This document shows, one piece after another, positions 210 through 46,402 of a stretch of DNA of 64,000 nt (the stretch's first letter is position 1; the number at the start of each line of letters is the position of its first letter). The stretch lies in NCBI RefSeq assembly GCF_013122565.1, contig NZ_CP053258.1. One strand, given 5' to 3'. Under the pieces are notes generated by a model. The model had not been told where the DNA came from and searched no databases. It worked only from the letters and a program-made list of their open reading frames with translations. A program made the translations under genes and the position numbers. The stretch comes from Escherichia coli (GTDB lineage: Bacteria > Pseudomonadota > Gammaproteobacteria > Enterobacterales > Enterobacteriaceae).

Positions 210-2473
210 TCATCCTCCTGATGCGTGGTAGCGGTCCCATTGAAGGGCAAAATAAAATCACCCAAACAGAAAACAGATTCTTCAGCCACGGATATAAGCT
301 GACCGTTCAAACGCAGTGAAACGGGCGCAGAAGTTCGAATCGCAATACGCTGCGCGTCGAGAGTGACCTGTAATTCGCAGCCCTGCCAGAACAGAGGGAA
401 AGACAACTGTTGCCACTGCTCAGGTAACGCCGGATTGAGATGCAATTCACCGTCATGCACGCTCACCCCGGCAAAACCCTGAATCGCCCCCAGCCAGATA
501 GCGCCAGTTGCGGCAGCGTGGATACCATCATCACAACTATGCGGATCAGCACCAAGATCGATTTCAGTCCCCTCGCGCCAGAACTGATAACTTTGGGTCA
601 GCAGGCCACAGCGTGCGGCAACAATGCCGTGGATTGCTTTACTTAATGACGAGTCGTGAATGGTGCGCGGTTCATAAAATTGCAGATTGGCAAGACACGA
701 TACCGCTGAGAACTGCTCCGGCAGCATGTAATTGAGCATCACCACATCAGCTTGTTTGAGGATCTGCATCTCGTTCACTTCTGCGCGTGAATAATCCAGC
801 AGAATGGTTTGCTTCCCCGCCGCCGCTTTGTATTTCGCCAGGTTAATCGCCGGCTTAGCCATAAACGAATCATCCTGCGGCAAAACGCCGTCGGGCTGAG
901 TCTCTGGCATCCACAACTCTTTGAGGAATATTTCGGCACGATGAATAAACGCATCGTCGCTACAGCCGAACTGGCGGGCAATATTCAGCGCCTGTTGGAC
1001 GTTGTAGCAGGCCATATAGCTGGTGTATGCGTTATTATTGACATGTTCGGTATATTCGTCTGGCCCAATAACATCATGAATTTCCAGACGATCGTTAACT
1101 CTCACCGCGCGGCTAATCCAGAATTTCGCAGTTTCCAGCAGTAGCGCCATGCCTTCGTGAGCGATGAAGCTTTCATCTCCCGTTGCCTGCCAGTATTGAA
1201 TGACAGCCCAGGCGATATCGGCGACCAGATGATGTTCAGCCTGCGCCGAGGCCACTTTTTGCCGCAGTCCGGTGCGGATGTTAATGGCGGCAAATTCCGG
1301 CGTCTCTTCTTCGCCGCTGCGCGCGCTCTCCCACGGAAACAGCGCGCCCTGCCAACCATTGCGTCGCGCTTTCTCCTGCGCGCCAGGCAAGTTGTGCCAG
1401 CGATAACGCAGTAAACTTCGGGCAACCGTCGGATCGCTAAACAGATGAAACGGTAGCAAAAATACTTCTGTATCCCAGAAAACGTGGCCTTTGTAGCCTT
1501 CGCCGGTTAAGCCTTTTGCCGCAATACTGCTGCGCTCGTCGTGAGCCGGCGTCATGATGCGCAGATGATAAAGCGCATAATCTAACGCTTGCTGATCGTG
1601 CGCATCGCCGCCATTTACTGTGATACGACGTTTCTGCCACCATTGACGCCAGTTTTCTGTTGATGCTGCAAGAAGTTGGTCGTAACTCTGCTGCGCGCAC
1701 ATTTCAAGCTGGCGAAGCGACGCGCTGCCCCACTCGTCTAAAACGGCTTGCCTGTCATCCCGCCAGTCGATCCACACCAGTTTTTGCAACGTCACTGTCT
1801 CGCCTGCATGAAGCTGCGCACTGGTATGTTGCAGCAAACGGCGCTCTTTGGCGGTATAGCATTGCTGCACATCACCACTCACCTGGCAGCAACAGCTGAT
1901 GGCCACATCACTGCGTCCATCCTGGGTGGTGTAGATCCCCTGCATCAGATGCTGACCAAACACCCGCACCTGGGTTTCGTCGAGATGTTGGCGACCGTGG
2001 TTGGTTTGCGTGGCGTCGATACCTGTTGAAATCAGCACTGACGCGTCAGCGTCCAGTGGCGTAATAGTGATTTCCAGCGCAATGAGCGGCAGTTGGTCTG
2101 CCGAAACAAAGCGACGGCTGGCGATGGTGTAACCTGCGCCGTTGCTGGTACGCCAGACAACGTTGCGGCGTAATTCGCCACTGGCAAAGTCAAGCTCACG
2201 CTGCCAGGCTTCGTGGGATAACGAGAAAACCTCACCATTTATGGCAATCTCCATCCCCAAGATATCAGGCAGGTTCACCAGTTCGTTGATTTCACCTTTT
2301 CCCGCCCGATGATACAGCCCCGCCAGATACATCCCTCGCGTCTGGCGCGTGTAATCTTCTTCATGGCTGGCGCGAAGCCCAAGATAGCCGTTCCCCTGCG
2401 CCATCAGCGATGCATACTTGTTCAGGGTATGCTGGCTGAAATGGGGTTCTGATAACGTTACTGGCCTGGTCAT
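206..2473 (-). CDS. ycjT: GH65 kojibiose phosphorylase
   Basis: 755-aa ORF in track, matches remembered YcjT length and sequence; last gene before ycjU. Confidence 0.9.
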
Positions 2474-3525
2474 AATTCCACACGCGTCCCTGTTTCTGCG
2501 GATTGATACAACGCCGCCACCAGTTGCTGGATGATGTACCCCTGCTCGGCGTCGGCTATCATCACGGGCTTGCCCTGTACGTGATTGATAAAGGCTTCCA
2601 TGCTGCGCAAATGGCGGTTGTCGTCTGCCATTTCCCGTTGCATCAGCGTCATTAATTCACCGTTGTTATCGGTGTAGATATGTGCTGGAAACAGCGTCGC
2701 ACCGGCTTTATCACCACAAAAGCTGACGTTCATAATCGACTGTTCGCGGATGTTGAGCGCAAATGACGTTTCCAGCCACAGAATGCCGCCGTTATGAAAT
2801 TCAATGGTGCCAAACAGCGAATCTTCGACGCTGTAAGTTGCCGGATCCCACTCGCCAAACTGACCGCAGCTCTTTTGCGGGCCGATCTTTTGAAAGCTAT
2901 GCGCATTCACGCTTTTCACCGCCGGAAAGCCCAGCACATACATCGCCGCATCCAGCATATGAATACCGATGTCGATCAGCGGGCCACCGCCCTGCAGTTC
3001 TTTATTGGTAAAGACACCCCAGCCGGGAACGCCGCAGCGACGCAGGGCGCGGGCGGTGGTAACGTAAATCTCTCCCAAAACGCCGTTGGTCACCTGTTCA
3101 CGCAGCTGTTGCGTATCGAGCGCAAAACGATGGTGAAAGTCGTAGGCCAGCACCTTGCCCTGTTTGCGCGCGGTATCGCACATTTCCCGCGCCTGTTCTG
3201 GCGTCATGGCGGGCGGTTTTTCGCACATCACATGGCAGCCCGCTTCCAGCGCCATCAGGGTATGTTCGTAATGAAAACGGTTAGGTGAGCAGACGCTAAC
3301 CACATCAGGTTTCACCGCCAGCAGCATGGCCTGCGGATCGTCCCACACGGATGCATTCCCGTATTTTTCTGCCAGCGCCTGCGCCTGGGAAAGGCGGCTG
3401 TCACAGACAGCCACCAGTTCCAGATCGTTGCGGGTGCAGTAGTACGAAGCATGAACCTTATCCGCCACCTGGCCTGCGCCTATTATCGCGACCCGCAGTG
3501 GAGAGCTTGTCATTGCACTTTTCAC
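2470..3525 (-). CDS. ycjS: Gfo/Idh/MocA-family NAD-dependent sugar oxidoreductase
   Basis: 351-aa ORF; N-terminal Rossmann motif VAIIGAGQVA; 4-nt overlap with ycjT. Confidence 0.9.
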   Translation of the reverse strand: MKSAMTSSPLRVAIIGAGQVADKVHASYYCTRNDLELVAVCDSRLSQAQALAEKYGNASVWDDPQAMLLAVKPDVVSVCSPNRFHYEHTLMALEAGCHVMCEKPPAMTPEQAREMCDTARKQGKVLAYDFHHRFALDTQQLREQVTNGVLGEIYVTTARALRRCGVPGWGVFTNKELQGGGPLIDIGIHMLDAAMYVLGFPAVKSVNAHSFQKIGPQKSCGQFGEWDPATYSVEDSLFGTIEFHNGGILWLETSFALNIREQSIMNVSFCGDKAGATLFPAHIYTDNNGELMTLMQREMADDNRHLRSMEAFINHVQGKPVMIADAEQGYIIQQLVAALYQSAETGTRVEL

Positions 3526-41728: not shown

Positions 41729-44404
41729 TTACTTCAACATATTACGAATGACATAATGCAAAATGCCGTCGTTCTGGTAGTAGGTCAACTCCGTCGCGGT
41801 GTCGATACGACAACGGCAGAGTACGACTTCCTGGCTACCATCCGCGCGCGTAAGCGTCACCGGAACCGTCGCGCCGGGTTGTAGATTTTGCAGATCGCCA
41901 ATATCAATCTTCTCTTCCCCGGTTAGCCCTAACGTTTTACGCGTTACGCCTTGCGGAAATTCCAGCGGCAGGATGCCCATGCCAATTAAATTCGAACGGT
42001 GAATTCGTTCAAACGACTCGGCAATCACCACACGAATTCCAAGCAGACGAGGACCTTTTGCCGCCCAGTCACGGCTGGAGCCTGATCCATACTCTTTCCC
42101 GGCAATCACCGCCAGCGGCGTTTGCTCCTGCTTATAGCGCATCGCAGCATCATAAATAGAGACTACGTCGCTGTCAGGTAAATGCCGCGTCATCCCCCCT
42201 TCAACGCCAGGCACCATTTCATTACGGATGCGAATATTGGCGAAGGTGCCGCGCATCATCACTTCATGGTTACCACGCCGCGAACCGTAGGAGTTAAAGT
42301 CTTTTCGCTCAACACCCCGACCTTGTAGATATCGACCCGCTGGGCTGTCGGGCTTAATACTGCCCGCCGGAGAGATATGGTCAGTGGTGACTGAATCCCC
42401 CAGCATTGCGAGGATCCGCGCACCGTGAATATCTTCCACAGGTGCTGGTGTTGCCTGCATTTCATCAAAGAAAGGCGATAAGCGAATATAGGTTGAATCC
42501 TCCTGCCAACCGTAGGTATCGGATCGTGTGACGTTAATTTCCTTCCACTCTGCTGTGCCTTCAAAAACTTCTGCGTACTCTTTACGGAACATTTCTGTGG
42601 AGACTTGTTCTACCGCACGGGCAATTTCTTGTGCCGATGGCCAGATATCTTTCAGATAAACCGGGTCGCCTTTACGATCATGACCAATAGGCTCAGCAGC
42701 CAGGTTGATATTCATATTTCCCGCCAGCGCATAGGCAACCACCAGCGGCGGCGAGGCCAGCCAGTTGGTTTTAACCAGCGGATGGATACGGCCTTCAAAG
42801 TTACGGTTGCCGGACAGCACTGCACCGACGGTTAAATCGCCTTTTTTGATTGCCGTTTCGATAGGATCGGGCAGCGGCCCAGAGTTACCAATACAGGTGG
42901 TACAACCGTATCCCACAAGGTTAAACCCCAGTTCGTCGAGATACGGTGTCAATTTCGCTTTTGCCAGATAGTCAGAAACAACTTTCGAGCCTGGTGCCAG
43001 CGACGCTTTGACCCACGGTTGCCGCTTGAGGCCAAGAGTTACGGCTTTTTTCGCCAGCAAGCCTGCAGCCATCAGCACACTTGGGTTAGAGGTGTTGGTG
43101 CACGAGGTTATCGCAGCAATGACCACAGCGCCATCCGGTAACTGATACTGATGTCCGTTCATAACATAATCGACCGGCTGGCGATCTTTATGCGTGGCAT
43201 TCACTTCCAGTTCGTTACTGGCGGCAAATGCTTTTGGTACATCGGGCAGTGCAACGCGATCCTGTGGGCGTTTTGGCCCTGCCAGGCTCGCTTCAACGTC
43301 ATTCATATCCAGTTCTAACGTACTGGTAAAAATCGGTTCATCGCCCGGGTTACGCCACATGCCCTGCGCTTTGGCATATTTTTCGACCAACTCGACCTGA
43401 TCTTCGCTGCGCCCGCTTAAACGCATGTAATCGAGGGTTACAGCATCGATTGGGAAGAAGCCACAGGTGGCACCATATTCTGGCGACATATTGGCAATGG
43501 TGGCGCGATCCGCCAACGGTAGTGAATCCAGCCCATCACCATAAAATTCGACGAATTTCCCCACCACGCCATGTTTGCGCAGCATTTGGGTAACGGTGAG
43601 AACCAGGTCTGTGGCGGTAATACCTTCACGTAATTTTCCGGTAAGTTTAAAGCCCACTACGTCCGGGATAAGCATGGAAACCGGCTGGCCTAACATTGCG
43701 GCTTCTGCTTCGATCCCCCCCACGCCCCACCCCAGCACGCCAAGGCCGTTGATCATGGTGGTGTGCGAGTCAGTACCAACGAGTGTATCCGGATAAGCAA
43801 TCCATTCACCGTCCTGCAATTCGCTCCACACTGCTTTGCCGAGATATTCGAGGTTAACCTGATGGCAAATGCCTGTGCCTGGCGGCACGACGCTAAACCG
43901 ACTGAACGCCTGCTTTCCCCATTTCAGGAACACATAACGTTCGTGGTTGCGCTCCATTTCCAGGCGTACGTTTTCTTCAAATGCCTCATCATCACCAAAA
44001 CGATCGACGGTCACCGAGTGGTCAATGACCAGGTCGACCGGTGAGAGCGGATTAACCTTTGCAGTATCGCCACCGAGGCGTTTAACCGCTTCGCGCATTG
44101 CCGCCAGATCAACAACGGCAGGTACGCCGGTAAAGTCCTGCATCAGCACCCTTGCCGGGCGGTAGGCAATTTCACGGTCAGCATGGGCATTTTTCAGCCA
44201 TCCCGCCAGCGCGTGGATATCCTCTTCGGTAACCGAGTTACCATCCTGCCAGCGCAGCAGGTTTTCGAGCAAAACTTTGAGTGACTTGGGCAGACGGGTG
44301 ATATCGCCCAGTGATTTGGCAGCAAGCGGCAGGCTGTAGTAGTGGTAAGTTTTATCTTTGGCCTGCAACGTGTCCTTACTGGCTTCTCGTAGGGTTGACG
44401 ACAT
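41729..44404 (-). CDS. acnA: aconitate hydratase A
   Basis: 891-aa [28 protein letters not shown]. Confidence 0.97.
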
Positions 44405-44776
44405 AGCTCCTCCTTAATGACAGGGTTGCGAAGCCCTGATTCTCTTCAGGGTGAGTATTAAAGATAACACAAACATCGCGTAACGATTTGATAACAACCC
44501 AAATTGATAAAAGAGGAGAAACCTTGTGGCAAAGCAAATGAAAACCCCGCCGCAGCGGGGTCAAGGATCAGTGAGTAATGATCCAGAGGAGTTCGGCCCA
44601 GAAGAGCATCGACAGAGAAAATGCACCCATCCAGGACCAATATTTCATATTTGTGTTGATCATAGGCTACACCTTTAACGGTTATTACTTTGTGTTGAGA
44701 TAACTCAACCTGTTATTGCTGTGGTGTATTAAAAGCCCTTTAATTCATTAAAAATGGGTAATAAGAATGATGATAA

Positions 44777-44944
44777 TTATTGTTTCGGCTGTTCATCTTC
44801 AGCAAACAGTTCTATAAAGGCTTGCTGCTGCGATGTTAGTTGCCAGTCGTCTGGAATAATGACGGAACATTCCCGTTTCGTTTCTGGTTCATTATCACTA
44901 TGCTGACATAATGGTGACGACTCCAGTTGCTCCTGACCGACCAT
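44777..44944 (-). CDS. yciX: small protein
   Basis: 55-aa ORF MVGQEQLESSPLCQHSDNEPETKRE; start abuts ymiA stop. Confidence 0.7.
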   Translation of the reverse strand: MVGQEQLESSPLCQHSDNEPETKRECSVIIPDDWQLTSQQQAFIELFAEDEQPKQ

Positions 44945-44946
44945 AG

Positions 44947-45075
44947 TTATCCCCACACTTTCCAAATCAGCAGTGCGACAACCACCCAGAAAAGTGCAGA
45001 ACCAAGAAAAACCGCCAGCCAGGCTTTACGTTTTAATTCAGGATCGCGGCGGGGTTCCTGATTTCCAGAAGGCAT
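44947..45075 (-). CDS. ymiA: small single-TM membrane protein
   Basis: My translation: MPSGNQEPRRDPELKRKAWLAVFLGSALFWVVVALLIWKVWG (42 aa); below the track size cut-off; coordinates hand-counted. Confidence 0.6.
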   Translation of the reverse strand: MPSGNQEPRRDPELKRKAWLAVFLGSALFWVVVALLIWKVWG

Positions 45076-45403
45076 TGCTAACCTCATATAATCGCCATCA
45101 CTTATCAGCAAGACGTTGAACGATTGGTGTAATTAATCATACGATGAGACAAATCCTAAAGAAACTTTAGTCAAAAATCCAGCGAATTTACGAATCGTAT
45201 CCAGTGAATAATTCAATCTTTTGACCTGAAATAGATATTTGAAAACTGGAGTTTGCGAGGCGGGTAATTAGACACTACTTTACAGGTAATTTACCCTATA
45301 AATATGAGGGATAAAATATTGTGCACGATATACAAATAAGTAACAAAGAAAATATATTTCGGCACCTTCGCTACATAAAAGGTGCCGAAAATAACGCAAG
45401 AAA

Positions 45404-46402
<999 letters not shown>

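Follow-up and report, generated by a model that had tools for sequence, protein, structure and literature searches.

We analysed a window of 64,000 nucleotides from Escherichia coli (assembly GCF_013122565.1, contig NZ_CP053258.1), in which the minus-strand interval from cysB (46378..45404) to acnA (44404..41729) carries three small open reading frames (ORFs), ymiA, yciX and ymiC. An earlier note, made from the letters of this DNA alone, had identified the first two as a tandem of small-protein genes upstream of acnA, and both the names and the position agree with the RefSeq annotation, in which the three products appear as "YmiA family putative membrane protein", "protein YciX" and "small membrane protein YmiC". 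In fact ymiA and yciX open a known operon of three cistrons, ymiA-yciX-ymiC, described as PhoQ-dependent and low-Mg2+-induced (Vellappan et al. 2024-25 preprint, PMC11429745). With both genes in RefSeq and the operon described in the literature, nothing is missed by the current annotation, although the track that the note refers to lacked the first ORF; the E. coli gene list gains nothing from genes that are textbook-annotated. The explanation that we regard as best overall, and as moderately probable, is that these two cistrons of the operon are translationally coupled and, as its weaker part, that their products may act as a pair at the membrane. YciX represents a conserved small-protein family with a sharp 17-residue helix motif, for which no curated model exists, and it is not an Escherichia orphan.

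A match of 95-99.5% identity to the region of about 1 kb was found in 5421 of 5426 complete E. coli genomes, and RefSeq carries all three genes. The closest strain for this region was LR-46 (99.5% identical), most E. coli being about 98% identical. Against the products of one RefSeq genome, identity was 100% for YmiA and YmiC of the window and 96% for YciX. Compared with the operon of E. coli K-12, the locus and the three genes are the same, and the window differs only by a minority yciX allele (P20, I29 and E51 in place of T, V and D of the commonest E. coli allele), whose product is 100% identical to the cluster P0001, "protein YciX [Escherichia coli]". The published operon work left YciX itself aside on account of its length of more than 50 amino acids (PMC11429745). 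The comparative sample consisted of 76 species-representative loci from Enterobacteriaceae and Erwiniaceae, which were fetched via YmiA and whose DNA was inspected directly. In these 76 loci ymiA is single-copy and occupies the cysB-acnA position, and an E. coli genome had a median of 1 matching place. Six of 5451 matching places for the region lay on plasmids, and some E. coli genomes had two copies.

The ymiA and yciX genes

Three in-frame start codons are available to ymiA, namely a TTG giving 54 amino acids, the ATG at 45087 giving 46 (MRLAMPSGN) and the ATG at 45075 giving 42 (MPSGN). The 42-residue form, which the earlier note had adopted, is that of the 2006 GenBank annotation, and the 54-residue form is that of the 2014 annotation (PMC4909307 supplementary file 3). 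According to the same file, tetracycline ribosome profiling (TetRP) maps initiation to the 46-residue form, and the observed tryptic peptide LAMPSGNQEPR begins upstream of the Met of the 42-residue form and spans that Met. The same 46-residue start was obtained in stalled-initiation profiling by Weaver et al., and YmiA was also taken as 46 amino acids in a study by parallel reaction monitoring mass spectrometry (PRM-MS), with approximately 1000-3000 copies per cell in normal cultures. Two initiation-profiling studies and a peptide seen by mass spectrometry (MS) thereby set the start 12 nt upstream of that given in the note; we take the gene as 45087..44947, its start codon being already settled by published data. 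The comparative data on the start are mixed but compatible with the 46-residue form: the second Met and a GAGG six nt ahead of it are invariant across Enterobacteriaceae, the first Met is substituted in a few genera, and the sole ymiA start of Pantoea lines up with the first Met. Internal initiation at 45075 may occur as well.

YmiA scored 125.9 bits against Pfam PF22868 (cut-off 27; profile positions 1-46 of 46) and 96.8 bits against NCBIfam NF000536 (cut-off 30), and the word-indexed protein search found it in many genera. The AlphaFold2 (AF2) model gives a helix at residues 16-45 with a predicted local distance difference test score (pLDDT) above 90, in which the transmembrane segment is preceded by a K-R-K-A-W juxtamembrane motif; K19, R20, K21 and W23 are invariant in 20 homologues and the alanine is at least 90% conserved. 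Green fluorescent protein fused to the N-terminus directs YmiA to the cell periphery/membrane (PMC11429745). YmiA crosses the inner membrane once, its basic N-tail (RRDPELKRK-AW) lying in the cytoplasm and an end of 3-4 residues in the periplasm, and the layout described in the note, a single transmembrane helix followed by a tightly coupled soluble product, stands.

As for yciX, an ORF of 49-59 codons abutting ymiA was present in 75 of the 76 species loci. The note had proposed a co-conservation check, naming conservation of only one of the two frames as the outcome that would speak against its idea; both frames turned out to be conserved. The ratio of nonsynonymous to synonymous substitution rates (dN/dS) was 0.11 for ymiA and 0.30 for yciX in Enterobacteriaceae, and 0.10 and 0.17, respectively, in Erwiniaceae. 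Within yciX, the N-terminal half evolves fast (dN/dS 0.57) and the C-terminal part is more constrained (0.20 in Enterobacteriaceae, 0.12 in Erwiniaceae). The corresponding uncorrected proportions (pN/pS) for yciX were 0.52 (Enterobacteriaceae) and 0.35 (Erwiniaceae) in frame, versus at least 1.06 in shifted frames. Because many pairs are near synonymous saturation the dN/dS values are only rough; the frame contrast is still clear. These substitution patterns indicate that both ymiA and yciX are under purifying selection across Enterobacteriaceae and Erwiniaceae. The longer overlapping version of the second ORF mentioned in the note does exist, as a mechanical 62-residue ORF with a TTG start (44965..44777, minus strand; ORF list); it is not the conserved form, since the ymiA stop or another stop shuts its frame just upstream of the ATG in many species.

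Scans with Pfam and NCBIfam matched no model to YciX, and a word-indexed search of 5.8 billion proteins matched it only in Escherichia and Shigella. The picture of an Escherichia-only orphan was overturned by tblastn on the species loci and by a full search with a hidden Markov model (HMM), in which a profile of 39 YciX orthologues, run against 1.84 billion cluster representatives with no word index, retrieved 89 proteins at E <= 1e-3. Almost all of them are 50-100 amino acids long, the named ones belonging to Enterobacter, Pantoea/Erwiniaceae, Mangrovibacter and Serratia. The apparent restriction was due to limits of search sensitivity and gene calling, and the case shows that proteins of about 55 amino acids are under-represented in the output of word-indexed searches and gene callers.

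The conserved part of YciX is its core motif, in which 39 diverse orthologues share W34, L36, Q40, F43 and I44 without exception and at least 90% of them keep P31. AF2 predicts a short turn and a helix at residues 38-48; block-mean pLDDT is 91 over residues 31-40 and 85 over residues 41-50, and confidence is low over residues 1-30 and in the remainder outside 31-50. On a helical wheel L36, Q40, F43, I44 and F47 lie on one face within a 100-degree arc. A degenerate DNA pattern for the motif matched 73 of 87 fetched loci, once each, and YciX of the window fits the family definition, a C-terminal P-x-x-W-x-L-x-x-x-Q-x-x-F-I in a protein of 49-60 amino acids (profile A2). YciX is best described, from these predictions, as a predicted-disordered soluble peptide with one short conserved binding-type helix. 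The note had called the second product 55 codons long and acidic. The length holds, as does the acidity of the window allele (isoelectric point 4.05), but the median in other Enterobacteriaceae and in Erwiniaceae is about 9, indicating that acidity is peculiar to Escherichia rather than a conserved trait of the family. Two possible relatives of the helix were set aside. Protein A domains gave the best sequence matches of the YciX profile in the PDB (E = 0.012, a QQxAF-type helix) and were judged to be chance, and the spacing of the conserved residues misfits the consensus of a beta-clamp or PIP-type motif.

The stop/start junction and pairs at other loci

In the window the yciX ATG follows the ymiA stop after a spacer of exactly 2 nt. 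In the junction set of 76 sequences (75 species loci and the window), the stop-to-start gap was -1 to +4 nt in every case, which is the spacing looked for in a coupled pair; yciX starts with ATG in 74 and with GTG in 2, and ymiA ends with TGG-GGN in 71 and with TGG-AGC in 5, placing a G-rich run 5-7 nt ahead of the yciX start. The relative reading frame of the two genes varies among lineages (0, +1, +2) while the gap stays within these bounds, and therefore it is the abutment, not an overlapping frame, that is kept. Judged from this comparison, such recurrent abutment of stop and start is far beyond chance. Folding of the junction RNA gave z = 0.19, with no stable local structure or start-occluding hairpin.

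The most economical reading of the junction, given its anatomy and the comparative data, would be termination-reinitiation coupling, in which ribosomes finishing ymiA reinitiate on yciX and the G-rich end codons of ymiA (TGG GGN) may serve as a weak Shine-Dalgarno (SD) element aiding the restart. YmiA and YciX would consequently be made together, in a fixed ratio and near the membrane. The TGG GGN/TGG AGC codons (44947..44955, minus strand) encode a conserved Trp-Gly/Trp-Ser and at the same time form the SD-like element for yciX, so that protein and translational constraints are inseparable at this site. Several proteins of 91-97 amino acids from metagenome and assembly data (P0005, P0009, P0010, P0041 and P0243, one of these clusters having 37 members) are YmiA-YciX fusions via a frameshift or small deletion near the junction. 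Fusion as a natural form was rejected on the ground that the fused metagenome proteins are frameshifted or deleted sequences, and they are probably assembly errors or rare mutants.

Adjacent pairs were also found in other settings. In the loci L080 and L081, a YmiA-like ORF of 36 amino acids with a GTG start (…DVKRRAWLAVFA…) overlaps by ATGA a YciX-like ORF of 41 amino acids (…IPEHWQLTPEQRRFIDDL…), and the pair of L080 (2966..3198) lies about 900 nt from a phage-integrase-family gene. In Serratia quinivorans (L087, ~2380..2674, and L085, ~2880..3255), an unannotated YmiA-like ORF of 37 codons (GTG start, VISKDDADIKRKAWLCVFIGCGVFWLAVAAVIYWLLI) stands 11 nt ahead of an annotated YciX-like gene of 57 amino acids, with an SD-like purine run in the 11-nt spacer; this pair is downstream of an ATP-binding cassette (ABC) ATPase gene, away from acnA. 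In L082, a divergent cysB...acnA locus, the two ORFs are still adjacent, 13 nt apart, and ymiC is absent at the pair loci away from acnA. The conserved frames of ymiA and yciX together with the pairs in other contexts support the two-gene module suggested by the note, with the reservations that the unit in the window has three cistrons and that each partner has been lost alone in one lineage. For the YciX-like ORF of L080 the gene caller had merged an out-of-frame upstream extension, giving 65 amino acids. The DNA upstream of the L080/L081 pairs and the Serratia loci share an inverted repeat, TTGATC...GATCAA.

Table 1. Positions in the window of the ymiA-yciX-ymiC operon and its associated elements
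Feature	Position	Strand	Description	Basis
Conserved ymiA upstream region	45088..45300	-	presumed promoter/operators/5' untranslated region (UTR)	MAFFT alignments (17 and 15 genera or species)
ymiA coding sequence	44947..45087	-	46 amino acids and stop, MRLAMPSGNQEPRRDPELKRKAWLAVFLGSALFWVVVALLIWKVWG	translation, RefSeq 141-nt coding sequence, family HMMs, mapped start
ymiA/yciX junction	44942..44955	-	TGG GGA TAA CT ATG: last two sense codons, stop, 2-nt spacer, yciX start	sequence
yciX coding sequence	44777..44944	-	55 amino acids and stop, MVGQEQLESSPLCQHSDNEPETKRECSVIIPDDWQLTSQQQAFIELFAEDEQPKQ	translation; RefSeq "protein YciX"
yciX core motif, codons 31-47	44804..44854	-	P31-x-x-W34-x-L36-(T/S/N)-x-x-Q40-(Q/R/K)-x-F43-I44-(D/E)-x-(F/M)47; predicted amphipathic helix with N-terminal cap	alignment
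ymiC coding sequence	44568..44663	-	31 amino acids, MINTNMKYWSWMGAFSLSMLFWAELLWIITH; third cistron, small membrane protein	ORF list, RefSeq, family HMMs
Rfam STnc180 (RF02079) match	44534..44736	-	full length, 1-208	cmscan, 199.3 bits, gathering score 50, E = 3e-43
Operon intrinsic terminator 3' of ymiC	44543..44562	-	GACCCCGCTGCGGCGGGGTT then T-run; 8-bp stem, 6 GC pairs	terminator scan
cysB intrinsic terminator	45357..45390	-	13-bp stem and T-run; divides cysB from the ymiA promoter region	terminator scan

Weighing a possible YmiA-YciX pair

Beyond coupling, and with less confidence, YmiA and YciX may act together at the cytoplasmic face of the inner membrane, YmiA as an anchor in the membrane and YciX through its helix, a short motif that would bind the cytoplasmic tail of YmiA or a larger target protein. 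By analogy, the pair might work as do other small membrane proteins of the PhoQP response, by modulating larger proteins of the membrane. That the two products form a functional pair is plausible, our confidence falling slightly short of even. More specifically, and only as a tentative proposal, which we hold to be possible rather than probable, they could form a conserved two-piece unit of Enterobacterales in which YmiA anchors a co-translated disordered adaptor, YciX, whose helix docks on the KRKAW tail or on a larger envelope protein, thus making a membrane-tethered regulator in the PhoQP (possibly Cpx) stress response; yciX is listed among Cpx-regulon genes in Salmonella in one paper. If the pair is real, YciX would be an unrecognised family spanning Enterobacteriaceae, Erwiniaceae and Serratia. 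The abutment has held through the whole divergence of Enterobacteriaceae and Erwiniaceae and the pair recurs at other loci, which justifies an interaction experiment.

Several observations weigh against this reading. Deletion of ymiA is neutral for growth at low Mg2+ (PMC11429745), and we found no direct evidence of the YciX protein or of initiation at the yciX ATG in the searchable literature. The N-terminal 30 residues of YciX and its net charge are poorly conserved. The DNA upstream of the operon drives PhoQ-dependent, low-Mg2+-induced transcription of a reporter (PMC11429745), while a scan of 340 bp upstream of ymiA for the PhoP box, (T/G)GTTTA-N5-(T/G)GTTTA, gave at best 3-4 mismatches out of 12 and none with fewer than 3; for want of a convincing PhoP box, the PhoQ dependence may be indirect. 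The partnership is moreover not obligate. In Salmonella enterica subsp. arizonae (L024, 2641..2830) an internal deletion has reduced yciX to a stub of 15 codons and a still recognisable 3' end, next to intact ymiA and ymiC genes, and Serratia rubidaea (L086) keeps a YciX-like gene beside a seemingly decayed YmiA-like remnant. When YmiA and YciX, given a paired alignment, were fused in one AF2 model through a linker, YmiA-(GGGGS)5-YciX, the YciX helix lost confidence (pLDDT 77/80, compared with about 91/85 before) and the predicted template modelling score (pTM) was 0.29; as the linker approach is crude, the alignment has 38 rows and no predicted aligned error (PAE) was available, this outcome is weak evidence, uninformative rather than negative. 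These losses and the absence of any sign of a complex in the fused model are what would be seen if the two proteins were co-expressed and functionally independent, the coupling merely saving promoters and ribosome-binding sites, the YciX helix binding an unrelated cytosolic target, and YmiA, like YmiC, acting alone in the membrane. Such independence would also agree with the presence of ymiC, an apparently unrelated third cistron, in the same operon and with evolution rates as far apart as 0.11 for ymiA and 0.30 for yciX. We nevertheless consider it unlikely, though by no means negligible, since the abutment kept in all 76 sequences despite frame changes, together with adjacent YmiA-like and YciX-like genes away from cysB-acnA where ymiC is absent, is hard to explain for unrelated passengers. 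S. enterica proper has a yciX of 56 amino acids at 0 nt after ymiA, and subsp. arizonae is a natural yciX knockout.

A small hydrophobic peptide followed by a tightly coupled partner gene would also suit a toxin and its antidote, with YmiA as a membrane-damaging peptide that co-translated YciX neutralises. Overexpression of YmiA indeed causes a lag of 8-10 h and longer cells in a start-codon-dependent manner (PMC11429745), and one pair, that of L080, adjoins the integrase gene. A similar lag is, however, common to the unrelated small membrane proteins MgtS, MgrB, PmrR and YoaI, none of which is a toxin (PMC11429745). The locus is single-copy, syntenic and strongly purified (dN/dS 0.1 in two families), unlike typical mobile toxin loci; PHROGs held no match for YmiA, YciX or the L080 pair, plasmid BLAST of the L080 pair region gave none, and of 4 matches to the YciX motif in viral contigs 3 were chromosomal DNA at contig ends and 1 was random, giving no evidence of a phage-borne pair. 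A scan for antisense-RNA promoter consensus found 4 against 3.1 expected in shuffled sequence, and subsp. arizonae survives the loss of yciX with ymiA intact. We accordingly rate a toxin and antidote as very unlikely. Still less probable is a cis-acting leader, in which the small ORFs would matter less for their protein products than because their translation governs read-through of the ymiC terminator into acnA or the level of STnc180. The place immediately ahead of acnA is conserved in Enterobacteriaceae and Erwiniaceae, the terminator lies about 140 nt ahead of the acnA ATG and the distal part is catalogued as a small RNA (sRNA), but the amino-acid sequences are conserved with in-frame pN/pS well under that of shifted frames, YmiA accumulates as a membrane protein, and the pair is present away from acnA in Serratia and L080. 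Finally, that only ymiA is real and yciX is a spurious ORF in its 3' UTR is hardly credible: lack of a curated model, the Escherichia/Shigella-only result of the word-indexed search and the lack of a published protein detection in our search would fit it, but a conserved ORF with five invariant residues, dN/dS below 1 in the annotated frame only and 89 profile clusters including Pantoea, Serratia and Mangrovibacter do not. Even taken together, the toxin-antidote, leader and spurious-ORF readings remain clearly improbable.

Among known systems, MgrB, MgtS and PmrR bind larger membrane proteins (MgrB-PhoQ, MgtS-MgtA/PitA and PmrR-LpxT). Like YmiA, these are single-pass inner-membrane proteins of fewer than 50 amino acids, induced by low Mg2+/PhoQP and giving a similar lag on overexpression (PMC11429745); unlike YmiA, none is known to have a coupled soluble partner bearing a conserved helix motif, and there is no sequence similarity to YmiA. 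The likeness may thus indicate a possible working mode by analogy, not family membership. Regulation of larger proteins has been a recurrent finding for members of the PhoQP regulon that are small membrane proteins; the pairing of one with a soluble adaptor would be new, if only modestly so. In mgtS-mgtT and yriA-yriB, as in ymiA-yciX, two small ORFs lie in a shared operon, are induced jointly and meet or overlap where the first stops and the second starts (PMC11429745), but those two pairs have an out-of-frame overlap, whereas ymiA-yciX has an abutment conserved in at least two Enterobacterales families and a soluble second product. Neither of the two pairs is known to include a coupled soluble partner that carries a conserved helix. 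The type I toxins TisB, Ldr and Ibs resemble YmiA in being small hydrophobic single helices that slow growth on overexpression; YmiA differs in that no antisense RNA is evident by consensus scans and Rfam, the locus is syntenic and purified, approximately 1000-3000 copies are present per cell and deletion is neutral. The patchy, multi-copy or mobile distribution typical of type I toxin-antitoxin systems was not found for the ymiA locus.

Upstream region, ymiC and the 3' end

Between genera, the yciX coding sequence is less conserved than the approximately 240 bp upstream of ymiA, which contain the invariant blocks GTCAAAAGATT, the palindrome CTAAAGTTTCTTTAG and GATAAG..CGATT.T.TGAGGTTAGCAATG. 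RNAalifold on the conserved upstream region gave -3.9 kcal/mol with almost no covariation, and no leader RNA fold was seen. Cunningham, Gruer and Guest reportedly placed, in 1997, a distal acnA promoter about 400 bp upstream, a position that would be inside yciX; our conclusions do not draw on it. The link to acnA and to oxidative or iron stress proposed in the note found no support, the published induction being by low Mg2+ via PhoQ (PMC11429745). The terminator scan placed intrinsic terminators on both sides of the small-gene unit.

YmiC scored 87.5 bits against Pfam PF23694 (cut-off 27) and 66.3 bits against NCBIfam NF041484 (cut-off 42). ymiC is conserved in most species loci, with dN/dS of 0.22 in Enterobacteriaceae and 0.12 in Erwiniaceae. 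According to published work it is the final gene of the operon, located in the yciX 3' UTR and lacking a promoter of its own. The DNA just upstream of it has negligible activity (PMC11429745).

Rfam searched over the whole intergenic region returned STnc180 alone, with no family over ymiA, yciX or the upstream region and no antitoxin RNA. The match to this family, full-length and with a high score, takes up the 3' third of the operon (44736..44534), covering ymiC and the operon terminator and excluding ymiA and yciX. Given this overlap, the "sRNA" would be the protein-coding 3' part of the ymiA-yciX-ymiC transcript, or else an RNA that is processed or has a dual function; it is unlike a plain sRNA in holding the conserved, translated ymiC ORF, and is better called a ymiC-coding 3' mRNA segment. 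A contig of 454 bp labelled Terrisporobacter mayombei (L078) also carries E. coli ymiA-yciX-ymiC DNA (ymiC 100% and YciX 95% identical), and is almost certainly a contamination of that assembly.

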